Part shown: positions 1 to 13,612 of the stretch, one piece after another
How positions within the stretch are numbered: position 1 is the stretch's first letter
Layout: each line of letters starts with the position of its first letter
Assembly: GCA_963665095.1 (NCBI GenBank)
Contig: OY762069.1
Coordinates: 3,904,001-3,968,000 of the forward strand
Direction of reading: 5' to 3'
Length of the DNA stretch: 64,000 bases
From: an uncultured Desulfobacter sp.
GTDB lineage: Bacteria > Desulfobacterota > Desulfobacteria > Desulfobacterales > Desulfobacteraceae
Made by a program: the position numbers and the translations under genes
Notes under the pieces: model-generated
What the model was told of the DNA's origin: nothing
Seen by the model: the letters and a program-made list of their open reading frames with translations, nothing else
Database searches by the model: none

Positions 1-887
1 CGTTTTCTTGATAATCTGGGCCGAAATGTATACCCTAGAAAATCAAACTTCATAACAGGATAATCTCCTTTTCGATCTTCATCCTTGCAATAAACTATTT
101 TTGTCTTTTCAGGGTGCAGCTCCAACCCACATTCACCAAACCTTAACTCCAAGTCAGCTTTCAACTGTTTGGCTAATGGTTCAGTTCTGCAGTGGCAAAC
201 AGCATCATCGGCATATCGCTCAAAAGGCACATACGAATAGTTTCGCTGCATCCAATGATCGAAAACATAATGCAAAAATAAATTTGCCAGCAAGGGACTA
301 ACCACTCCTCCTTGCGGAGTTCCTTTTTGCGGATAAACAAGTGATCCGTCCGGCATTGCGATTGGGGCCTTTAGCCACCGTTCAACATACAAAAGTACCC
401 AGCGACAATCTGTGTGTTTTACTACAGCTCTCATCAAAAGTTCATGACTGATATTGTCAAAAAATCCTTTGACATCAAGATCCAACACCCAGTCATACCG
501 CCAGCATCTTTTGCGTGCTTCCCCCACGGCATCCAGGGCTGACTTGTTTGGCCGATAACCATACGAGTCCGGATGAAAATGATGCTCTAATAACGGTTCG
601 AGATACTGTTTTACAACCATCTGGGCGACACGATCTCCCACAGTTGGAATACCAAGGGGCCTCATTCGGCCATCCCCTTTTGGTATCTCTATACGCGCTA
701 CCGGAGGAGGGAAATAACTGCCGGAAGACATCCGGTTCCATATTTTGAAAAGGTTATTGGTAATATCCTTTTCAAAATCAACTATGGACTGATTATCTAT
801 TCCAGCCCCACCACGGTTTGCTTTCACGCATTTGTATGCTTCCCAAACTTGACGCTTTGAGATAATAAACGACTTTACTTTTTTCAA
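1..887 (-). CDS. ltrA: Group II intron reverse transcriptase/maturase, class D (RmInt1-like); runs off the window start
   Basis: TTG start at 887 after GGGAAGGA; translates MKKVKSFIISKRQVWEAYKCVKANRGGAGID...RPLGIPTVGDR...LDVKGFFD...GTPQGGVVSPLLANLFLH...FERYADD; no stop seen before base 1. Confidence 0.92.
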   Translation of the reverse strand, partial: MKKVKSFIISKRQVWEAYKCVKANRGGAGIDNQSIVDFEKDITNNLFKIWNRMSSGSYFPPPVARIEIPKGDGRMRPLGIPTVGDRVAQMVVKQYLEPLLEHHFHPDSYGYRPNKSALDAVGEARKRCWRYDWVLDLDVKGFFDNISHELLMRAVVKHTDCRWVLLYVERWLKAPIAMPDGSLVYPQKGTPQGGVVSPLLANLFLHYVFDHWMQRNYSYVPFERYADDAVCHCRTEPLAKQLKADLELRFGECGLELHPEKTKIVYCKDEDRKGDYPVMKFDFLGYTFRPRLSRK

Positions 888-1113
888 CAGAATCCTTCCC
901 TATACGGGTTGTTCTTATGTTAAAAGTTGAACGACGCAACCCCTTCGCTCCAGTCCCATTGCAGCACCTTCTTCACTACTACGAGTTGCTCCGCCCCTGT
1001 GCTCCGCTTCGGTACTCTGATCCTTGTGGTGCTTCCACTTGGATTTCTCCCTTAGCATCGGAACGACAGGTTCCCATGTTCCATAAGAAAGCCTAAGATA
1101 TGTTCATGCCGCC
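1..1113 (-). mobile_element. Class D group II intron copy 1, 5' part of domain I deleted, fused to DV of IIC intron A
   Basis: RT ORF plus upstream ribozyme-like sequence (minus strand GGCGGCATGA...GGAACATGGGAACC); bases 1-470 are near-identical to 11252-11721; ends abruptly at gccgcc/acccggcatacgg. Confidence 0.8.
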
Positions 1114-1777
1114 ACCCGGCATACGGATCTCGTACCAAGGCGGTTCGGCTGGTATGAATAAAATCAGTTGTAGGTTATCCCACCGATTTTATCGGGTTTT
1201 GGGCAAAGTCTTGCTATGGAAATTTCGGCCACTGCCGCATTATTCCCATAAAATCCTTCTACTTACTCACCACAACCATTTACCCAAGCCATTCGGCCCG
1301 GGTACCGTTCAGGCCTTCATCGGGGTGAGGCCTCCGGGTGTACTTCTCCCATGCCAGAGAGGCCCAGCTCGTTTTTTCCGACTACTATGCCCTCTGCTGA
1401 CTTCTCCCATGCGGTCAGGACCAGTTACCCGGCCCTCAGACAATCCGGCACATGGGAGATCTCCCGGGGTAAACACGTGTCTTTCAGTACCTGAATGCCG
1501 GATTTACGGACATACCCTGTAATGGATAGAGGACTTCACCTTGTTGTGCAGGCTCGTCCCGGTATGTGCGTCTTATATCCGATTTCTGTACGTCATCCCG
1601 TACCTTCGTGGTACCTTGCCTCAGCAAGGCGGCTTCCTCCCGAAGCACCGTCACCGGTACCCCGTTGCACTACCACTACACCCTTCGCCTCCATCCGGCT
1701 GGGTCTAAGACTTGCCAAACGCATTGAAATCGTTTACGTTTGACTCACTTTTAAGAACACGTGCCGTGCCCGGCACA
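1112..1777 (-). mobile_element. ORF-less group IIC(-attC) intron, copy A (DVI not seen in window; first G displaced to 2486)
   Basis: Minus strand begins TGTGCCGGGCACGG; has DV GAACCGCCTTGGTACGAGATCCGTATGCCGGGTGG; colinear with copy B; no RT ORF. Confidence 0.85.
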
Positions 1778-2485
1778 ATAGGGATAGGACTCCCCATTAC
1801 TGAGGAGCCCTCCCACACCACCCGGCGTACGGATCTCGTACCAAGGCGGTTCGGCTGGTATGAATAGAATCGGTTGTAGGTTATCCCACCGATTTTATCG
1901 GGCTTTGGGCAAAGTCATGCTATGGAAATTTCGACCACTGCCGCATTATTTCCATAAAATCCTTCTACTTACTCACCACAACCATTTACCCAAGCCATTC
2001 GGCCCGGGTACCGTTCAGGCCTTCATCGGGGTGAGGCCTCCGGGTGTACTTCTCCCATGACAGGGAGGCCCGGCTCGTTTCCTTCCGACTACTATGCCCT
2101 CTGCTGACTTCTCCCATGCGGTCAGGACCGGTTACCCGGCCCTCAGCCAATCCGGCACATGGGAGATCTCCCGGGGTAAACACATGTCTTTCGGTACGTG
2201 AATGCCGGGTTTACGGACATACCCTGTAATGGATAGAGGACTTTGCCTTGTGTGGCAGGCTCGTCCCGGTATGCGCGCCTTATACCCGATTCCTGTACGT
2301 CATCCCGTACCTTCGTGGTGCCTTGCCTCAGCAAAGCGGCTTCCTCCCGAAGCACCGTCACCGGTACCCCGTTGCACTACCACTACACCCTTCGCCTCCA
2401 TCCGGCTGGGTCTAAGACTTGCCAAATGTATTGGAATTCTATACATTTGACTCACTCTTAAGAACATGTGCCGTGCCCGGCACAC
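1778..2485 (-). mobile_element. ORF-less group IIC intron, copy B, complete (708 nt)
   Basis: 5' GTGTGCCGGGCACGG at 2485; DV GAACCGCC...CGTACGCCGGGTGGTG; DVI ends CCTATCCCTAT at 1778; DIV short and non-coding. Confidence 0.9.
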
Positions 2486-3493: not shown

Positions 3494-4197
3494 GTGCGAC
3501 ACGAGGTCGCATTATTGGCTGTTTGGCGGACCAGTCGGTCCTGACCAAACCCGGCTCCTGCCGGTACCCTAGGTGGCATGCGGTTACCGGTGCATCCGGC
3601 AACGGTGTGAAGCCCAACCGACAAAGTACCGAATTCCGCAGCTGCGGAAGGGGTGGAAGCCGTGAGGCGGATACCCTCCTGGAAGCCTCAATCCGGGTAA
3701 GGGCAAGGGTTTGGATGATATGGTCAAATTAATTGAATGTTCCGTAAGTACCGTCAGGGAGAGCAAGCTAAAAAGGCTGGTAAGCTTGGACCAAAAGGTG
3801 AGCGGTCAGGTTGCAGGTTTCCTAACTGCCTGCACGGAGATGTTGTGCCGCCGGTGCTTAAGGGCAGACCTAAGTCATCCATAAATTGGCAATAATGCGG
3901 AACGTGGAAACCCCGTATCTTCGCCGGGAGTATTCGGCAGGTGAAACTGTAAGGCACACTGATGGAGGTGCGGGCGTAAGATGCAGGAAAAAGCGAATGC
4001 CGTCTTGTAATGAGATGGATACGGATTGAGGCGTATATCCCCAACATTACCCGGCCCGAAAGGGAGCTGACGTCCGGCGGGTGTGACTACAGACACACCC
4101 GGGCAGGTATTTCGTAAGCGTTTAAAGGACCCCATCTACAACTCATTAAAATGACATGAGAAGATGAGCCAACTTTTAATTAACGGAGGCCCATCAT

Positions 4198-4530
4198 ATG
4201 TCAGAAACAGAGAACAAAAACCAAAAGCTAATCCAGTTCTGGAAATACCATATTAAACAATGGTCTGAATCGAGTATGTCCCAAAATGCATACTGCAGGC
4301 AAAATGATTTAAGACCCAATCAATTTACATACTGGAAAATGAAATTCAAAAGCCAGGCACTTGCCCCAGAATTCGTTCAGGTCCCTTCAACGCAGATCAG
4401 CCAGGCACTAAGTCTTTCTGAACAAAAAGGCTTAACGTTGAATACAGATAACGGATTTCAGATCGAAATACCGGATGGCTTTTCCCAAACAACCCTGGCC
4501 CAGGTGCTTCAAGTATTGAGGCGGTGCTGA
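4198..4530 (+). CDS. tnpA: IS66 accessory protein TnpA
   Basis: W..HI.QW..S.MSQ.AYCR...L....F.YW pattern; first ORF of the IS66. Confidence 0.85.
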   Translation: MSETENKNQKLIQFWKYHIKQWSESSMSQNAYCRQNDLRPNQFTYWKMKFKSQALAPEFVQVPSTQISQALSLSEQKGLTLNTDNGFQIEIPDGFSQTTLAQVLQVLRRC

Positions 4531-4883
4531 TGTTTTCTCCCACCCAGAATTTAAAAATTCATATCGCACTTGGAAACACTGATATGCGCAAGTCCATTGA
4601 TGGGCTATCCATACTTGTGAGCGAAAAGTTAAATTTGGATCCATTTTCAGGACACATGTTTGTATTCTGTAATCGGAAACGGAATATATTGAAAATCCTG
4701 TATTGGGATCGCAATGGATTCTGTCTTTGGCATAAGCGCTTGGAAAGGGATTATTTTCAATGGCCCAAGTCAAAAGAGGAAATTTTGACCATCGGAGCAA
4801 AAGAGCTTTCCTGGCTGATGGACGGACTTTCTATTCGTCAGGAAAAAGCACATAAATCATTAAAATATTCGGCTGTTTTTTGA
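4524..4883 (+). CDS. tnpB: IS66 accessory protein TnpB
   Basis: TDMRKSIDGL, FVFCNRKR..LKILYWD.NGF.LW.KRLE motifs. Confidence 0.95.
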   Translation: MLMFSPTQNLKIHIALGNTDMRKSIDGLSILVSEKLNLDPFSGHMFVFCNRKRNILKILYWDRNGFCLWHKRLERDYFQWPKSKEEILTIGAKELSWLMDGLSIRQEKAHKSLKYSAVF

Positions 4884-4928
4884 TCATAAAAACTGGTGAA
4901 AACCGCGTGGTTATGGTATATACAACGC

Positions 4929-6521
4929 ATGAATAAAGAGGCTTTTGCAGACATAAATGACGTTGAGAAATTAAAAGAAATGATGGCTTGTTTTGTCAAT
5001 GATTTTTCAGATAGAGAGCACAATTATAAAGCCGAAATCAAAATTCTCAACGAACAGATTAAAAGCCTTCGGGACCAGCTTTTTGGTAAAAAGACAGAAA
5101 AAATCCATAAGAATGACGGTCAACTATCCCTTTTTGATACTTTTGAGCCGGATACGCCCATATTGGACGAACCCGAAGAAATCAGCGTGCCTGCCCATAA
5201 TCGAAAGAAGCCAGGGCGTAGACCTTTGCCTGAAAACCTTCCACGGGTTGAAGTGATCCACGATCTGACCGAGGAAGAAAAAATATGTGCCTGTGGCTGC
5301 ATGAAATCCCGTTGCGGCAAAGAAGAATCTGAACAGCTTGAAATTATTCCGGCACAAGTGAGAGTAATCAGAAACATTCGTTATAAATACGCTTGCAAAA
5401 ACTGCGAAGGTGTTGACGATGATGGGCCAACAGTGTCCATTGCCAGAATGCCGGAACAAATGATCCCCAAGAGCATCGCAACCCCAGGGCTTTTGGCCCA
5501 TATCCTGACAGCCAAATTTGCAGATGCTTTACCCTTCTACCGGCAGGAAAAACAGTTTAACCGAATTGGAGTAGACATCCACAGGTCCAATATGTGCAAT
5601 TGGGCTATGAAAGTGGCCCAGGCCTGTGAGATCCTGCTGGAATATATGAAGGATGAAATCCTTAAAGGCCCAGTGATAAATATTGACGAAACAACAGTCC
5701 AGGTTCTCAAAGAACCGAAACGGTCAAAATGCTATATGTGGGTGTTCAAAGGAGGGACACCGGATAATCCCATTATTCTGTTCCAGTATCACCCAACTCG
5801 ATCCGGGGATGTTGCCCGGAATTTTTTGAACGGTTATCAAGGTGTTGTTCAGACGGATGGCTATGCTGGCTATGACTTTCTTGATCATATTGTGGAAATC
5901 ATTCATGTTGCGTGCTGGGCACACGCACGTCGAAAGTTCATGGCTGTGGTCAAAGCTGCCGGAAATAAAACTGGCAACCCAACGGGAACCGCCGGCAAAG
6001 CCCTGAAGTACATCAGCAAATTATACAAAATAGAAAGAGAGGCCAAAGAACTTGGTTTGTCTGCTGATGGACTTTACTGGAAAAGGCAGGAGCTATCCTT
6101 GCCTATCCTTGATGAATTTAAAAAATGGTTGGATGCTCAAGTTGAAAAGGTACCGCCCAAAAGTCTTCTTGGTAAAGCCATTAACTACACCCTTAATCAA
6201 TGGCATAGATTGGTTCTGTATACGGCAAGTGGTCTGGTAATGCCGGATAATAATGTAGTCGAAAATGCCATAAGACCCTTTGTGGTGGGCAGAAAAAATT
6301 GGTTGTTTTCATGTACACCTGCGGGCGCCGATGCCAGTGCCTGCATTTACAGCCTGATCGAAACAGCCAAGGCCAATGGGCTTGAACCTTACTGGTACCT
6401 CAAATTTCTCTTTGAAAATTTACCGGAAGCCATGACGGAAGATGAATTTAAAGCCTTGATGCCACAAAACGTGGATAAACATTTGCTGGAATCCAACTAT
6501 ACAACACCCCGTCAGGCTTAA
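4929..6521 (+). CDS. tnpC: IS66 DDE transposase TnpC (alternative start 4896)
   Basis: LPFYRQ, IDET, QTDGYAGY, CWAHARRKF, DNNVVENAIRP..VGRKNWLF, SLIETAKANG. Confidence 0.97.
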   Translation: MNKEAFADINDVEKLKEMMACFVNDFSDREHNYKAEIKILNEQIKSLRDQLFGKKTEKIHKNDGQLSLFDTFEPDTPILDEPEEISVPAHNRKKPGRRPLPENLPRVEVIHDLTEEEKICACGCMKSRCGKEESEQLEIIPAQVRVIRNIRYKYACKNCEGVDDDGPTVSIARMPEQMIPKSIATPGLLAHILTAKFADALPFYRQEKQFNRIGVDIHRSNMCNWAMKVAQACEILLEYMKDEILKGPVINIDETTVQVLKEPKRSKCYMWVFKGGTPDNPIILFQYHPTRSGDVARNFLNGYQGVVQTDGYAGYDFLDHIVEIIHVACWAHARRKFMAVVKAAGNKTGNPTGTAGKALKYISKLYKIEREAKELGLSADGLYWKRQELSLPILDEFKKWLDAQVEKVPPKSLLGKAINYTLNQWHRLVLYTASGLVMPDNNVVENAIRPFVVGRKNWLFSCTPAGADASACIYSLIETAKANGLEPYWYLKFLFENLPEAMTEDEFKALMPQNVDKHLLESNYTTPRQA

Positions 6522-6781
6522 AAAGGTGCGGTTGATACACCGCTTACGGTATTTCTTTGCAAGAGAGTCTGGAGAATCTTTGAGGATGGTGTAGATTCCC
6601 GAAATAACCTGAACAAAAACCCGCCAAATTTTTCATATTAAATTGACAAAGTTCCATTTTTCTCAAATTATCCTGTACAGGTTCTGATCAAAGCATTCTG
6701 ACAAAAATGAAAAGGGCGAAAAGCTTTGCAGAGCCTCGCCCTTAAGACCGGGATTTATAAAATCCCAAAACAACCATAAAA

Positions 6782-7228
6782 ATGATAATAAAGGTCAAAG
6801 CTGATATCAAGCAAATTTTCAAGCAGGGCAAAAATTTTACATGGCCAAAACCGTCACGATGTCCACATTGCAACGACTCCAGGCTGTGGGGACACGGCTT
6901 TGTACTCTCCTTTTTTGATGGATTTGATCAAGGGGTGTATTTGAAGCGATATCGCTGCCCCTATTGCAAAACCGTATTCAAATTGAAGCCATATGGTTTT
7001 TTCAAGAGGTTCCAGGCCAGTATCTGGCAAATCCTTACCAGCATTATGAGTCGTCTATACACTGACCGGTATCTGCCGGAACTCTCCTGGAACCGACAGC
7101 ATTTTTGGTTTACTGCATTGAAACGAAATATAGCGGCCTACCTGTCCAACAGTTGGGACAAAGGTGTGGTTGCTGGTTTTATCAAGCTAATCGGTATGGG
7201 TAAAATCCCGGTTACCAGTTCAATTTAA
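6782..7228 (+). CDS. Transposon-associated Zn-ribbon protein (DUF6431-like)
   Basis: CPHC...LWGHG...RYRCPYC motifs; first ORF in the element. Confidence 0.75.
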   Translation: MIIKVKADIKQIFKQGKNFTWPKPSRCPHCNDSRLWGHGFVLSFFDGFDQGVYLKRYRCPYCKTVFKLKPYGFFKRFQASIWQILTSIMSRLYTDRYLPELSWNRQHFWFTALKRNIAAYLSNSWDKGVVAGFIKLIGMGKIPVTSSI

Positions 7229-7331
7229 CCATGGGGCTGGATCAGGTTTAAACCACCCTACCGAAGGCTGTGATTTACCGAAGGATCATACTGTCATACA
7301 AGCCCTTAGAACCAAATTTTAAGGAGGAAGT

Positions 7332-8588
7332 ATGACAGAAAATCAGAAAAATGAGGTTGCCGTGTTCAGGTTTGGGGTCATTTGTGAATTTGTGACCGGA
7401 ACAAATTTTGATTACGGTGAAAAAGAACGAATTTTACAGCAGAAGTGCGCCCGCAAATGGTCCATCCCGTATTCTGGAAGGACCAGGCTTTCCAGAAGTA
7501 CGATTCTGGGATGGGTCCGGCAGTATAACGGTCGAATAGAGTCTCTTTACCCCAAAGACCGTTCAGACCAGGGAAAATCAAGGGTATTCGATGACGAGAC
7601 TGCATCTCAACTAATCAAACTCCGGTTAGACCAGCCTGATGCGACAGTCGATACATTGATCTGTTCACTTCAAAAAACTACATGCCAGACATACAGTCCA
7701 TCCAGTGTATACCGTTTTTTACGCGGCCGGGGGCTAATGAACACGGCCCGGCCAGAGGATAGAAGAAAGTTTGAAGCCCCGCACCCCAATGATATGTGGC
7801 AAAGCGACGTCATGCACGGCCCTACAGTCCTGGTTCAGGATAAGCAAAGAAAAACGTACCTGATTGCCATTATGGACGATCATTCCAGGCTGGTTACGGC
7901 TGCAGGTTTTTATTTATCTGAGAATCTGAAGACCTATCTTATGGTGCTGGAGCAGGCTTTTTTGAGCCGTGGGCTTCCCCGCAAGCTGTATGTAGATAAC
8001 GGTCCTGCGTTCAGATCCCATCATTTAAAATATGTAGCAGCGTCTCTGTCCATCGCTTTAATCCATGCAAGGCCATATAAGCCCCAGGGGAAAGGTAAAA
8101 TCGAGCGCTGGTTCAGAACGGTTCGGCTTCAGTTTCTGCAAAGATTTACAGGTAAGACCCTGGATGATCTGAATGGGGCATTTGAGAAGTGGCTTCATAA
8201 TGAGTACCATCAGCGTAAACACAGCTCCACAGGCGAATCACCGTTTAAAAGATTTACCTCGGCCATGGAGTGCATCCGTACCGCCCCACCGGATCTGAAA
8301 GACCACTTCCGCAAAACCGCCCGGCGCAAGGTGGCAAAGGACCGAACCATAACCCTTGACGGCAACATGTTTGAGGCCCCGGTTGCGCTGATCGGCAGAC
8401 ATGTGGATGTAAAGTACCATGAGGACACCCCTTTGCAGGCTGAAGTTATCTATAAAGCAAAGTCTTATGGCTTGTTAACCCCGGTGGACCTTGCTGTGAA
8501 CTGCCGGGTCAAGCGGCACCGCTGGAACGAAAATGATATCCGGATTATGCCTGAACCCTCAAATTACAAGGGAGGGCAACTGTTATGA
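7332..8588 (+). CDS. DDE integrase/transposase (rve core plus Mu-transposase C-terminal domain)
   Basis: WQSD, DDHSR, LYVDNG, GKGKIERWFRT, Y..R.HSST. Confidence 0.93.
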   Translation: MTENQKNEVAVFRFGVICEFVTGTNFDYGEKERILQQKCARKWSIPYSGRTRLSRSTILGWVRQYNGRIESLYPKDRSDQGKSRVFDDETASQLIKLRLDQPDATVDTLICSLQKTTCQTYSPSSVYRFLRGRGLMNTARPEDRRKFEAPHPNDMWQSDVMHGPTVLVQDKQRKTYLIAIMDDHSRLVTAAGFYLSENLKTYLMVLEQAFLSRGLPRKLYVDNGPAFRSHHLKYVAASLSIALIHARPYKPQGKGKIERWFRTVRLQFLQRFTGKTLDDLNGAFEKWLHNEYHQRKHSSTGESPFKRFTSAMECIRTAPPDLKDHFRKTARRKVAKDRTITLDGNMFEAPVALIGRHVDVKYHEDTPLQAEVIYKAKSYGLLTPVDLAVNCRVKRHRWNENDIRIMPEPSNYKGGQLL

Positions 8589-9394
8589 GTGAAATGTATC
8601 GCACCTTTTTTGGCTTATCCAGGGAGGCCTTCCCGGCGCAGATAGAAATTAATGATATCCTGGTTACCCCGGAGGTCTCGGGCGTTAAAAATCGGATTGA
8701 TTATTCCTTAAGACTTGGCTGCAGTGCGGTTATCACAGGGGATGTGGGCAGCGGAAAGTCCACCGCCTTAAGGTATGCCGCCTCATCCCTACACCCTTCG
8801 GAATACAAAGTCTTTTATGTTACGGCCTCAAGCGGTTCCATCATGGAACTTTACCGGCAGATTGTTGAAGAACTGGGCATAGAGCGGACATCGACGTCCC
8901 GCGCTGTTATGATCTCCATTATTAAAAATGAAATACGTGAATTCGTCCTGGGAAAAAAGATCAAAACCGTTTTGATTATAGATGAGGCATCTCTGCTTCG
9001 CATGGAAGTCTTTGCCGAACTTCACACCCTGGTTCAATTTGAAAAAGACGCCATGCCCTGGCTGCCTGTGATCCTTGCAGGTCAGCCGACATTGATAGAT
9101 AAGCTTCAGTACCGGACGTCAATCCCGTTTGCATCCAGGATTGTGGCTAAAAGCCATCTGGATGGTCTGGATGTGGCTGGAATGAAAACTTACCTGATCC
9201 ATCATTTAAAACTATGCGGTGTTGACACCAACTTTTTTTCTGACCAGGCGGTGACTGCGATTCATCAAGGCTCCGGCGGCCTTTTACGAAAGGCGAATAA
9301 TCTTGCCAGAGGCTCATTGATTGCTGCTGCGGCAGAAAAATCAATGACGGTATCTGCAGAGCATGTCCGCATTGCTTCATCGGAGATTTTTTAA
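8585..9394 (+). CDS. ExeA/TnsC-like AAA+ ATPase of the transposon
   Basis: Walker A GDVGSGKST, Walker B LIIDEA, ILAGQP; ATGA overlap with the transposase. Confidence 0.9.
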   Translation: MSEMYRTFFGLSREAFPAQIEINDILVTPEVSGVKNRIDYSLRLGCSAVITGDVGSGKSTALRYAASSLHPSEYKVFYVTASSGSIMELYRQIVEELGIERTSTSRAVMISIIKNEIREFVLGKKIKTVLIIDEASLLRMEVFAELHTLVQFEKDAMPWLPVILAGQPTLIDKLQYRTSIPFASRIVAKSHLDGLDVAGMKTYLIHHLKLCGVDTNFFSDQAVTAIHQGSGGLLRKANNLARGSLIAAAAEKSMTVSAEHVRIASSEIF

Positions 9395-10043
9395 GAAAAA
9401 ACAGCCATAGAGCAGAATATTACGATTTCGGTGAAACGGAGCCGGGCTCTGCTGAGGAGCAACCTGGTAAGGGATAGCCGGAAGCAGGCAGCATTGAATA
9501 ATGCGCCAGGGGAAGTGGGGATTACCTGCTTCCCCTTTCTGCTTTATTCAAGCTGTTCTGCCTATGCCTTAAAAACCTACTGAGAAGGAGCGCAGCGACT
9601 TCTGTAGCTGTCTTAAATAATATGGAAAAGATTTAATCTGTTCAAAATAATTAGAAAATTTAAGTCAGGATAAAATGCGACTCAACAATGGGAAAGCAAA
9701 TGACGGCAATAGCTGGTGCGCCATCAGCAGCTTTACGCTGTTAAAAGACTGTAGATGCGTATCGCAAAGGTTGTTAAAGTAGCACACGGCATATGCGCCA
9801 GAGGTTCTTTCAAAAGGATGCATTTTCTTTTGACTCGGAAAAAGAACAGTGCTTTCCGAGAGAATGCTCAAGGACATATGCTATGAAATAACTGTAAATT
9901 TCATTATTGCTAAAACAACCGGGCGGCCCGCAAGGCTTAGTCTTAGAAATGCTTGAGCCGTATGATGGGAAACTGTCACGTACGGTTCTGAGGGGGCCTG
10001 GGGTAGATAACTACCCCAGGCTACCCGATTTTCAAAAAAATCG

Positions 10044-10080
10044 TTGCACGGATCCAAAAGTAATACTACAATGGTATTAC
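10044..10080 (+). promoter_or_regulatory. Sigma70 promoter and palindromic operator of the AbrB/VapC cassette
   Basis: TTGCAC(10044)-17 nt-TACAAT(10067); inverted repeat GTAATAC-N7-GTATTAC straddles the -10 box. Confidence 0.75.
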
Positions 10081-10100
10081 ATTATCAAAGGAGATTTATT

Positions 10101-10325
10101 ATGCGTGTAACCACAAAAGGCCAAGTCACTATCCCCAAGAATGTAAGGGAAATATTAGGTATTGCTCCAGAGACAGACGTTGATTTTCAAGAAGATAACG
10201 GAAGATTTTATCTGGTCAAAGTATCAAAAAACAAACCGACCTCTAAATTTTCGAAGTTAAGGGGGATTGCTACAGCTAAAATGTCTACAGACGAAATCAT
10301 GAATATGACAAGAAAAATAAAATGA
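10101..10325 (+). CDS. AbrB/MazE/SpoVT-family antitoxin
   Basis: MRVTTKGQVTIPK.VRE.LGI; AAGGAG RBS; overlaps the PIN toxin. Confidence 0.92.
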   Translation: MRVTTKGQVTIPKNVREILGIAPETDVDFQEDNGRFYLVKVSKNKPTSKFSKLRGIATAKMSTDEIMNMTRKIK

Positions 10326-10726
10326 ACGGAATTTTCATTGATTCGTGTGTGTTGCTTGATCTGTTTACGAATGATTCTAAATGGGGAAACTGGTCTGAAG
10401 ACGTATTAAGTCAGTGTAGCCAGACGAATACATTATTCATTAATTCAATTGTGTATACCGAAATATCAATTGGTTTCAACCGTATTGAAGAAGTCGAGGA
10501 AGCTGTTGAACAAGTGGGTGTAAAAGTCCTGGAAATTCCACGCGAAGCTTTGTTTTTGGCTGGAAAGACATTCCTTGAGTATCGAAGAAATAAGGGCACT
10601 AAAAGTTCAACCCTTCCGGATTTCTTCATTGGTGCTCACGCTACAGTATCTTCATTTGACTTAGTCACAAGGGACATTGCAAAATATAGAACGTATTTCC
10701 CAAACATAAAACTTATTTGCCCATGA
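10322..10726 (+). CDS. vapC: PIN-domain toxin VapC
   Basis: IFIDSCVLLD, VYTE, LPDFFIGAHA, LVTRD. Confidence 0.92.
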   Translation: MNGIFIDSCVLLDLFTNDSKWGNWSEDVLSQCSQTNTLFINSIVYTEISIGFNRIEEVEEAVEQVGVKVLEIPREALFLAGKTFLEYRRNKGTKSSTLPDFFIGAHATVSSFDLVTRDIAKYRTYFPNIKLICP

Positions 10727-10814
10727 TTTGCTTCAAGACGTGGTCGCAAACAAATTTTGAACTTTATACCAAGCGAATAGGGATAGGACTCCCCATCACT
10801 GAGGAGCCCTCCCA

Positions 10815-11733
10815 GGTGAGTAGCCCAAAGGAACTTCCCCTTCAGGCTCTCTCAGAACCGGTCGTGAATCTCTCGACTCATCCGGCTCCTATCGTTCAGC
10901 CGTTTTTTTTTCAGGACACGCCAATGTACAAAAAGGTTCGGCTGTCGTTCAGCAATCTGTGTCAACCATCTTGTGGCCTTTTGTTGACGTCCCCTGAGTT
11001 TCTTATATTTACAGGTTGCCCAACGTACTAACCGCCAATTTATATGATGGAGAATCCCAGACATCTCAGAAGGATTGTACCGCCCGTAATAATTAATCCA
11101 GCCTTGAATTATTGGATTACATTCTATAGCCAGATCCTCAAGCGTGTCCCCTGGCCGTAATTGCCAGTTCCAACTGCGTACTTTCTGTCTGATTGCCTTT
11201 GCAGCCTTGTTGCTTATCGCTGGTGTGAAGTTTTCAAAAAATTTTCCTCTGCGATTTCTTGATAATCTGGGCCGAAATGTATACCCTAGAAAATCAAACT
11301 TCATAACAGGATAATCTCCTTTTCGATCTTCATCCTTGCAATAAACTATTTTTGTCTTTTCAGGGTGCAGCTCCAACCCACATTCACCAAACCTTAACTC
11401 CAAGTCAGCTTTCAACTGTTTGGCTAATGGTTCAGTTCTGCAGTGGCAAACAGCATCATCGGCATATCGCTCAAAAGGCACATACGAATAGTTTCGCTGC
11501 ATCCAATGATCGAAAACATAATGCAAAAATAAATTTGCCAGCAAGGGACTAACCACTCCTCCTTGCGGAGTTCCTTTTTGCGGATAAACAAGTGATCCGT
11601 CCGGCATTGCGATTGGGGCCTTTAGCCACCGTTCAACATACAAAAGTACCCAGCGACAATCTGTGTGTTTTACTACAGCTCTCATCAAAAGTTCATGATT
11701 GATATTGTCAAAAAATCCTTTCTCATGGCACAC
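10815..11733 (-). mobile_element. Class D group II intron copy 2, both termini present, large internal deletion
   Basis: 5' GTGTGCCATGAGA joined directly to RT KGFFDN codons; DV GAGCCGGATGAGTCGAGAGATTCACGACCGGTTC; 3' end CTACTCACC; removal restores GGGTGGTG/TGGGAGGG exactly as in copy B. Confidence 0.9.
10852..11720 (-). pseudogene. ltrA: N-terminally truncated class D intron RT/maturase
   Basis: Begins at KGFFDN; retains PQGG, YADD and maturase NPIIQGWINYY; lacks RT0-2. Confidence 0.9.
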
Positions 11734-11786
11734 CACCACCCGGCATACGGATCACGTACCAAGGCGGTTCGGCTGATTTCGAAAAA

Positions 11787-12858
11787 TCAGTTCCCGGGCA
11801 GATACAATCCTTTCTTAACAAAATACATTTCAGGCATGGCAATGGCCACCCACTTGATTTTGCTCATGTGCCAATACTTTTTGCGTGCGTTGCCGCACAG
11901 CATGGCGTCCTGATGAGAAATACCAAGTTTTTCCAGGTTACGGACCCTGGTCCCAGGGTTTTTCCATTGTTTCCAAACAAGACTTCTCAGCCGTCGCAGT
12001 ATCCAGACCTTGAGTTCTTTCAGAAAATAGCGGGTTTCCGTGAGCCGGAAATATCCCCACCACCCTCGGAAATACTGGTTCAAGTCCTGAATCACTTGCC
12101 ACAGACTTTTACCCCGTTTACGGCAGGTTAATTCCCGGACCTTATCCTTGAACCGTTTCATACTCTTGGCATGAATCCGGATCTTGGACTGCCCACACAT
12201 TTGGAAATATGTGAATCCTAAGAATTTACCTATCCACGGTCTGCTTACAGCACTCTTATCCTGGTTTACCTTGAGCTTGAGTTTCACAGTCAGAAACCGG
12301 GTGATACTCTGCATAACCCGCTGGGCTGCTCTCAGGTATGGCCTTCAACCATATACCCCTTCCCCTGTATCACTGCATCGTGTGCGGATCTGCCGGGCCT
12401 GAATCCATAACTGAATTCAGAAAAAGAGGGGTCCCAGACCTGTTCAAGGACCTGGCTCAATTTATCATGACCATCGACACCTGGGATATGGCCTGCTGGA
12501 TAAACCGGTCCAGCACTGTTGGGATTCCAAGTAAACGGACACCGCCATCCGGTTTAGGGATTTCCTTCCTTTTAACCGGCAGCGGTTTGTACCTGCATTC
12601 CAGCAGGTCTTGTTTGATTTCAGGCCAGTGCTTTGCAAGGTAGCTGCCAAGCTGGCTGGTTTTCATGCCATCCACTCCTGGGGCACCCTTGTTTGCACAG
12701 ACATGCTTCCATGCCAGGATAATGTTGTTACGTTCAAGAATCATCTCCATTAAACGGGCATTGTTTCCCAGACGTTCGGCAATCTGTGACGCTGGAAACA
12801 GTTCCAACTGCTGTGGCGATCTGTTCACAAGTACACATCTCCTATTTGTCGTTATCAT
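11787..12858 (-). pseudogene. ltrA: Class C intron RT/maturase pseudogene
   Basis: N-term NKGAPGVDG, R.LGIPTVLDR; then FSEFSYGFRPGRSAHDA; the PQG/YADD region is absent; C-term FLGFT, LNQYFRGWWGYF. Confidence 0.9.
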
Positions 12859-13027
12859 TTACCCGGACCATTCGGCCCGGGCACCGTTCAGGCCTTCACC
12901 GGGGTGAGTCCTCCCTGGTTTGCAGGGCTCGTTTCCTCCGACTACTATGCCCTCTGCTGACTTCTCCCATGCGGCCAGGACCAGTTACCCGGCCCTCAGC
13001 TCCCCATTCGATTTTAAAAACAACCAT

Positions 13028-13051
13028 ACTTGTACAAAATAATGGACAAGT
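13028..13051 (+). promoter_or_regulatory. Probable YefM-YoeB operator
   Basis: ACTTGTACA-N6-TGGACAAGT; TGTACA/TGGACA cores 12 bp apart, as in the E. coli yefM operator. Confidence 0.65.
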
Positions 13052-13104
13052 TTAAAATCAAGTATTATACTTGTGCTATAAAGAGAACAAGTTTGGAGAA
13101 TGTT

Positions 13105-13359
13105 ATGAGAATTATAAATTTTAGTGAAGCACGAAACAATTTAAAAACTGTTTTGAATCAAGTGGCGGACGATGCTGATTATACAATCATCACACGTCGT
13201 GATTCAGAGGACGCTGTTGTCATGTCACTGGAGACTTTCAATAGTTTCATGGAGACTTTTTACCTTCTCAGGTCACCTGCCAACGCGGCACATTTAACAA
13301 AATCTATTCAACAATTTAAAAATGGGAAAGTTCAGGAAAGAGATCTAATAAATGAATAG
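13105..13359 (+). CDS. yefM: YefM/Phd antitoxin
   Basis: INFSEARNNLK.VL, ITRR...AVVMSL, ET.YLLRSPANA.HL. Confidence 0.95.
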   Translation: MRIINFSEARNNLKTVLNQVADDADYTIITRRDSEDAVVMSLETFNSFMETFYLLRSPANAAHLTKSIQQFKNGKVQERDLINE

Positions 13360-13612
13360 AAAACTAACCTGGACCGGGGAAGCATGGAAAGACTATCTCT
13401 ACTGGCAAACACAAGACAAAAAGAAACTGAAAAGAATCAACAAACTCATTAATGACACAATGAGGCAACCATTTGAAGGCATAGGGAAACCTGAGCCATT
13501 GAGAGAAAATCTATCTGGGTTTTGGTCCCGAAGGATTGATGATACAAATCGTTTGGTTTACGCTGCAGATGATGATTTTCTTACAATCATTTCATGTAGA
13601 TATCATTATTAA
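13352..13612 (+). CDS. yoeB: Txe/YoeB toxin
   Basis: AWKDYLYWQ, PFEGIGKPEPL, WSRRID..NRLVY, CRYHY. Confidence 0.97.
   Translation: MNRKLTWTGEAWKDYLYWQTQDKKKLKRINKLINDTMRQPFEGIGKPEPLRENLSGFWSRRIDDTNRLVYAADDDFLTIISCRYHY

Follow-up and report, generated by a model that had tools for sequence, protein, structure and literature searches.

A class D group II intron that appears to home to the domain V/domain VI junction of other group II introns

Why does a group II intron of one class lie inside introns of another class at one and the same position, and is that position its homing site? These questions are raised by a 64,000-nt stretch of DNA from an uncultured Desulfobacter sp. (contig OY762069.1, positions 3,904,001 to 3,968,000, forward strand), which we analysed as a whole and call the window; its own genome of 6.9 Mb is referred to as G000. 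An initial annotation had proposed that a class D intron homes into the junction of domains V and VI (DV/DVI) of IIC introns and in this way follows IIC-attC introns into integrons. From sequence comparisons, we put at about 0.9 the probability that the invader is an RmInt1-like intron of class D that lacks an endonuclease and homes to the DV 3' strand together with the DV/DVI junction of other group II introns.

Invader copies in the window and their host introns

On the minus strand of the window, where all features of this section lie unless stated otherwise, we found three IIC-type introns of one family. One of them, copy B (1778..2485), is a whole, ORF-less intron whose site is empty at 1816|1815, where the strand reads ...GCCGGGTGGTG|TGGGAGGGCTCC. 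Its DV and DVI take the expected fold, with the site GGGTGGTG|TGGGAGGG inside the two-base linker between them. This fold and matches to RF02001 and RF01998 identify an IIC-type ribozyme that has a short DV with a CGC triad, and these two features are marks of class C. Copy B appears to be inserted one base inside the 5' end of a neighbouring host intron, host A (TTGGT G|GTGTG...CCCTAT|TGTGCC; 2486-2485 and 1778-1776), and the same extra G is found at the host of a further invader copy outside the window, copy D (G000 3902694).

In copy C of the invader (10815..11733), a class D-type insert of 919 nt with an internal deletion lies in an RT-bearing host. The host sequence GGGTGGTG ends at 11734, the insert runs from GTGTGCCATGAG (11733) to GGGCTACTCACC (10815), and the host resumes with TGGGAGGG from 10814, with zero duplication and with a single register that fits. 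Contigs from three of four public runs carry the empty allele, with a skip of exactly 919 between 10814 and 11734. The insertion exactly at the DV/DVI boundary that the initial annotation had described is confirmed. The deleted copy is also present in run X17, which is labelled as another organism and in which a 171-nt contig spans both junctions; the dead copy is therefore common to more than one strain. The 5' end of copy C (GTGTGCCATGAG, 11722..11733) is identical to that of the full-length L004, L020, L021, L026 and L003 and is the sole remnant of domain I. The internal deletion, of about 938 bases (from intron nt 13/14 to 950/951), takes away all EBS elements and the RT start, and the 3' part of the RT/maturase ORF (10891..11721) restarts at intron nt 951/952. 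It is followed by the invader's own DV and DVI (10815..10890; RF00029, 47.1 bits; fold z -5.2), which end in CTACTCACC and have the junction GGTTCTG|A. A poly-A tract right before the RT stop (window ~10900-10912) varies in length, with 9 in the window, 10-11 in genome G021, 18 in G024 and 5 in L032 and L112; a change in its length alters the final RT codons, and in G000 the frame continues into DV.

The host of copy C flanks the insert with its DV (11734..11770), whose 3' strand gives IBS2 (TATGC, -14..-10) and IBS1 (GGTGGTG, -7..-1), and with its DVI and 3' end (10777..10814), whose first base, T, is IBS3. The body of this RT-bearing, IIC-type intron (11771..13000) lacks the 5' end, and its RT ORF, recognised by TIGR04416, is in two pieces with the core deleted, so that only TIGR04416 positions 2-85 and 230-353 are covered.

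Host A, an ORF-less IIC-type intron, is present with domains I-V (1112..1777), and its DVI is found beyond the left edge of the window. Copy A of the invader (1..1111) starts at intron nt 308/310, with intron nt 1-307/309 deleted together with EBS1, EBS2, EBS3 and the last host bases, and its class D sequence adjoins the end of the host DV at 1113-1112, where GG is common to both sides. Past the left edge of the window, the last bases of copy A are CTACTCACC, which is followed by TGGGAGGGCTCC (G000 3903564|3903563), and this 3' flank is host DVI, as the initial annotation had anticipated; its statement that an ORF-less host (A) and an RT-bearing host (C) were invaded at the same site and in the same orientation agrees with the junction sequences of both. 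The RT ORF of copy A is open from 887 and runs past the window edge. We considered whether copy A could be a working chimera in which an ORF-less host gains an RT, and dropped this candidate, for which the open ORF was the only support.

Two more copies lie elsewhere in G000. Copy D (3902025-3901221) has the same 5' deletion as copy A and is cut by an IS, and copy E (647002) consists of the first 209 nt only. All four invader copies (A, C, D and E) are thus at the same site and broken, and of nine DV copies of the host family in G000, four are invaded and five are empty. The hosts of copies A and D differ by ~6%, and the host of copy D is 99.7% like copy B. Because copies A and D share their deletion and because of this likeness of the copy D host to copy B, the two probably represent one event that was copied by recombination and are not independent. 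To judge from their sequences, the window copies cannot splice as complete introns because their EBS elements are deleted.

The window also contains a third kind of group II intron on the plus strand (3535-10029; RF02012 at 3550-3704, DV/DVI at 9953-10029), which is apparently split by two IS-like elements (4198-6521 and 6782-9394) and whose junction, GGTTCTG|A, is uninvaded. Between the introns there are cassette-like units on the plus strand that consist of two toxin-antitoxin-like gene pairs (10044-10726 and 13030-13612), which we take from their translations to be AbrB/VapC-like and YefM/YoeB-like.

Identity and relatives of the invader

To place the invader, we compared it with RmInt1, which in our collection is locus L197 and was identified by flanks that match primers given in PMC4496777. 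The best plasmid match, L192 (66%), was ruled out as RmInt1; it sits after YADD codons. The invader RT is 55% identical to that of RmInt1 over 379 aa, the other intron RTs of G000 are 26-39% alike to it, and it matches TIGR04416 with 430 bits (cut-off 300). In the full-length L004, the ORF of 417 aa stops just before DV, which leaves no room for an endonuclease domain. Intact relatives have a IIB-type domain I with EBS1, EBS2 and EBS3, the elements deleted in the window copies, and RF01999 matches domain I with 113.1 bits in relative L211 and 113.7 bits in RmInt1; the invader and RmInt1 both terminate in CTACTCACC. Because of the RT identity, the RF01999 score, the lack of room for an endonuclease and the common 3' end, we file the invader as an endonuclease-less class D (IIB, RmInt1-like) group II intron; our trees covered RmInt1 and its relatives. 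The nests are twintrons in that a group II intron lies within another on the same strand and its exact excision restores the outer intron.

When we searched 61 related genomes, we found full-length copies of 1,861 nt that are 99% identical in G021 and G024, and when 25 genomes of the genus were searched at the DNA level, partial copies came to light in G006, G021, G022 and G024. Beyond G000 there are 10 copies in 4 genomes of the genus, all located after GGGTGGTG or, in a second ORF-less host, after GGGTGTTG. Three hosts in G024, ~50% alike over their last 500 nt, carry invaders that are 100% identical over 1,600 nt, and since an identical invader sits in unlike hosts, we infer that these copies are recent separate homing events. 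Viral contigs gave one distant match of 39% and no relative. In the RT-bearing IIC-type hosts of L004, L020 and L021 (from G021 and G024), and also in that of L027, there is a second class D invader right after the YADD codons, so that one host carries two different intron parasites.

Target recognition and host range

For a survey of flanks, we took the best 80 of 162 genome-contig loci and the best 80 of at least 548 metagenome-contig loci, fetched by RT likeness and blind to flanks. We then worked with a set of 34 loci, 30 of which are in RT clade 1 (all loci at 82% or more and the frameshifted L142, with the G000 copies left out; 24 distinct proteins, many loci being near-copies), while 4 more loci (60-62%) were chosen by their flanks and then shown to form clade 2. 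In this set, 28 of 28 readable 5' flanks are the DV 3' strand of another intron, and all of the 28 readable 3' flanks have T as their first base and resemble DVI, 2 of them over a short stretch only. YADD codons were found in none of the 28 readable 5' flanks, and the RYADD-coding motif of an RT gene, which is the target of YADD-homing introns, is not that of the invader. The remaining relatives (55-70%) sit in many cases after YADD codons of RT genes and in others in IS-like genes. In L126, the 5' and 3' flanks look like two different hosts, and the contig is possibly chimeric.

Several kinds of intron serve as hosts. Among the host RTs there are at least five groups, 26-45% alike, and host domain I matches RF02005 in L123, L080 and L050 and RF02001 in the window. 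Within the window's genus, the hosts of all 14 copies are IIC-type introns with GGGTGGTG or GGGTGTTG; among the metagenome relatives (87-92% RT identity), most have EBS1 CAGATCT and hosts of other kinds. The site is the same DV/DVI junction in one orientation, and the target, as read from these flanks, is wider than IIC-attC introns. In G000, the intron families with GGATCTG or GGTTCTG junctions are uninvaded, which is what the EBS1 variant of the window's sub-lineage, CGCCACT, predicts. A pattern scan of 400 genomes of the phylum gave 4 matches as compared to 5 in a control, and each of the 4 arose by chance in an ordinary gene; the spacing of the pattern suited GGATCTG-type hosts, the window's own copies were missed, and the scan is uninformative.

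Other class D relatives were seen elsewhere in group II introns, with L108 located 13 nt into a 5' end and L102 and L166 directly after a group II 3' end, and there is a tandem in L192. The invader's own DVI is interrupted by the 5' ends of other group II introns after GGGCTA in L117 and after GAGAGA in L118, a hint that other lineages target DVI as well.

To identify how the target is read, we placed the EBS elements by alignment with RmInt1. EBS1 pairs with host positions -7..-1, EBS2 with -14..-10, and EBS3 (A) with the T at +1. The EBS2 register is one base off that of RmInt1 (-13..-9), and L113 is without pairing at -14..-10. The initial annotation had predicted an EBS1 of about CACCACC, and we found CGCCACT in the 99% relatives that form the window's sub-lineage and CACCACT in L032 and L127, close to that prediction. 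Further EBS1 variants are CAACACT in L189, CAGCACT in L076 and CAGATCT or CAGACCT in most metagenome members, and each variant fits the -7..-1 sequence of its own host; EBS2 occurs as GCATA, GCATG, GCGTG and ACGTG. EBS-IBS pairing holds in 95.3% of 276 cells (23 rows). Double-sided changes number 31 as compared to 10.4 in shuffles (reached in 0 of 500; slid registers give at most 6), and the own-target scores are 6.0 vs 4.75 for EBS1 and 4.18 vs 3.67 for EBS2 (0 of 20,000 shuffles; 17 distinct sets), although these shuffle counts are not probabilities, because the loci are related and partly redundant and kinship inflates the counts. EBS/IBS changes are seen repeatedly, in clade 1 as well as in clade 2. 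Of 40 distinct class D loci, 35 have an EBS3 candidate complementary to the +1 base and 5 have a mismatch, and the EBS1 hairpin alone folds no better than shuffles. At the level of base complementarity, EBS1 is shown to be re-tuned, to GGTGGTG for IIC-type hosts and to GGATCTG and similar sequences for others. A full match to EBS1, EBS2 and EBS3 of an intact relative occurs at 3 places in G000 (both strands), all of them unoccupied DV/DVI junctions that belong to the same host family, and IBS1 plus T alone has 744 matches in that genome.

In members of the CAGATCT type, EBS1 and EBS2 fit the invader's own DV no worse than they fit real GGTTCTG hosts, and only the +1 base differs. Among 27 parsed clade-1 loci the own +1 base is A in 26 and G in 1, and it is A in 4 of 4 clade-2 loci, whereas in 38 other class D loci it is T in 23, G in 8, C in 5 and A in 2. 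No self-insertion junction was found among the 240 loci examined. According to the available text of PMC4075523, RmInt1 needs a Watson-Crick EBS3/IBS3 pair, which was present in 88 of 88 selected targets. A or G at the own +1 would mismatch EBS3 and might in this way prevent insertion of the intron into itself, and we lean towards such a mechanical effect of the mismatch. That self-avoidance is an adaptation seems doubtful to us: 6 of 6 class D loci that end in ACC and are not at DV also have a non-T base at their own +1, so that self-avoidance may be a structural by-product.

For the origin of the habit, we built a tree of 154 distinct proteins with FastTree and then, with IQ-TREE, one of 43 rows that were picked in the light of the first. 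In the 43-row tree the two clades are supported at 100/100 and 100/98, with a backbone that is without resolution. A topology in which the two clades are held together was rejected at p-AU 0.032, a test that is weaker than its p value suggests given that the rows were pre-chosen. DV/DVI homing possibly arose independently in these two RT clades.

Alternative explanations, known systems and significance

The mobility of the invader is inferred from its relatives, all G000 copies being defective. By analogy with RmInt1, the invader would be transcribed together with its host and would splice out as an RNP, which would then reverse-splice into single-stranded DNA at replication forks, where RmInt1 homes according to the available text of PMC3035460. 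From intron anatomy, the 1.86-kb insert would separate the host DV from its DVI, and the host should then be able to branch and to ligate its exons only once the invader has spliced out. An invader that has lost domain I, as has happened in part to all four G000 copies, would inactivate its host permanently. Hydrolysis of its own 5' splice site may still be open to a IIC core. The spliced junction of a nest has the same sequence as the empty DNA allele; in RNA-labelled runs, contigs share 0.04-0.17 of words, and X4 covers 8 of 30 bins and is uninformative about splicing.

The invader could instead be a specialist of IIC-attC introns that evolved to ride into integron arrays, which is close to what the initial annotation had proposed. 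The exclusive use of IIC-type hosts by the copies of this genus fits this account, as do the uninvaded GGATCTG and GGTTCTG families of G000 and the setting of the window hosts, which lie opposite to cassette-like ORFs and follow TTGT-like ends of long hairpins bounded by TAAC...GTT, although these attC-like hairpins fold no better than shuffles (z -0.35 and -0.68) and the only integron integrase of G000 over the cut-off is 3 Mb from the window. Across the lineage, the CAGATCT type of most metagenome relatives, their hosts that are not IIC-attC introns, the 26-45% likeness among host RT groups and the presence of RF02005 rather than RF02001 all contradict it. Specialism for IIC-attC introns is refuted as a general account, to which we give very little credence, and stands for the CGCCACT sub-lineage of this genus. 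Most relatives are found in other kinds of intron, so that transport into integron arrays along with IIC introns is a consequence of the target and does not define it.

It is equally improbable that insertion is loose at many sites and that only harmless insertions within introns survive. Purifying selection against insertions in genes is to be expected and the 744 matches to IBS1 plus T would offer such sites, but neutral intergenic sites and other sites within introns would then retain copies too, yet every readable flank of the 34-locus set falls at one structural position and the EBS letters change along with the host. Least credible of all, neighbouring introns with similar DV/DVI regions could have recombined, or been misassembled, to give the nests. 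In favour of this, the region is rich in repeats, the deletion common to copies A and D in diverged hosts points to recombination after insertion, and L126 may be chimeric. Against this, the host is joined to the 5' end of the invader (GTGTG), which is unlike DV, the joins are exact at either end, contigs of separate runs contain the empty form as well as the copy C junctions, and the same site recurs across many unrelated assemblies. We therefore retain homing to the DV/DVI junction as the preferred reading.

Homing of introns into introns is already known, at the YADD motif and in domain IV. The YADD-homing introns M.a.I5 (Methanosarcina acetivorans), UA.I3, P.l.I2 and B.th.I3 are described in PMC2504315 and nested intron arrays of Methanosarcina in PMC4424553. 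As far as the available text of these papers goes, YADD-homing introns resemble the invader in being endonuclease-less, ~1.8 kb long and IIB-like, in homing to a conserved motif of group II introns and in forming twintrons; in contrast, they target the RT active-site codons in the ORF, whereas the invader targets the ribozyme at the DV/DVI junction. Many of the nearest RT relatives of the invader sit after YADD codons. The DV/DVI junction is present in ORF-less introns too and cannot be bypassed. In the Euglena psbF twintron, an inner group II intron lies in domain V. In the Trichodesmium Tr.e.I7/I8 twintron, the inner intron likewise interrupts a structural domain (domain I), with sequential splicing (PMC4649490); as described in the available sources, the Trichodesmium and Euglena twintrons are single loci and not a mobile lineage that homes to DV/DVI across intron kinds. 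RmInt1 of Sinorhizobium meliloti (class D, IIB3; PMC3035460, PMC4075523, PMC4496777) has EBS1, EBS2 and EBS3 at homologous places and, like the invader, no endonuclease domain; the available text describes homing into the insertion sequence ISRm2011-2, its EBS letters are unrelated to those of the invader, and its EBS3 is G where that of the invader is A. In Thermosynechococcus elongatus, TeI3-in-TeI4 shows identical inner introns in diverged outer ones, as in G024, a pattern that the available text of PMC2882425 interprets as separate recent insertions; the inner TeI3 is ORF-less, of its host's own family and located at the ORF start in DIV, and the invader differs in these respects.

In the literature searched, mostly the main text of non-subscription papers, we found no lineage that homes at the DV/DVI junction, and the available text of PMC12584367, PMC7306698, PMC7049729, PMC7923331 and PMC5572947 gives no DV/DVI homing case. 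Published annotation pipelines drop or miss nested introns (PMC4028801 and PMC8919778, in their available text), which may be why the DV/DVI site seems undescribed, and the annotation of nested introns is affected by the present finding.

By these data, the parasitism of introns by introns is extended beyond the RT gene, to the catalytic core of the RNA, which ORF-bearing and ORF-less introns of several kinds have in common and which the host can hardly mutate away. The natural series of EBS/IBS pairs is a ready test of how homing specificity moves between hosts and of whether a single base at +1 can tell self from non-self, and the nests offer natural material with which to ask if a ribozyme whose DV and DVI are separated has to wait for its inner intron. 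As a tentative view of the whole, which we hold to be less likely than not, class D introns may at least twice have become general parasites of group II introns by reading a sequence that is kept near-universally, with a host shift requiring 2-3 changes in EBS1/EBS2 and the self spared by one base, at the start of its own DVI, and such introns might act as natural brakes on intron spread.
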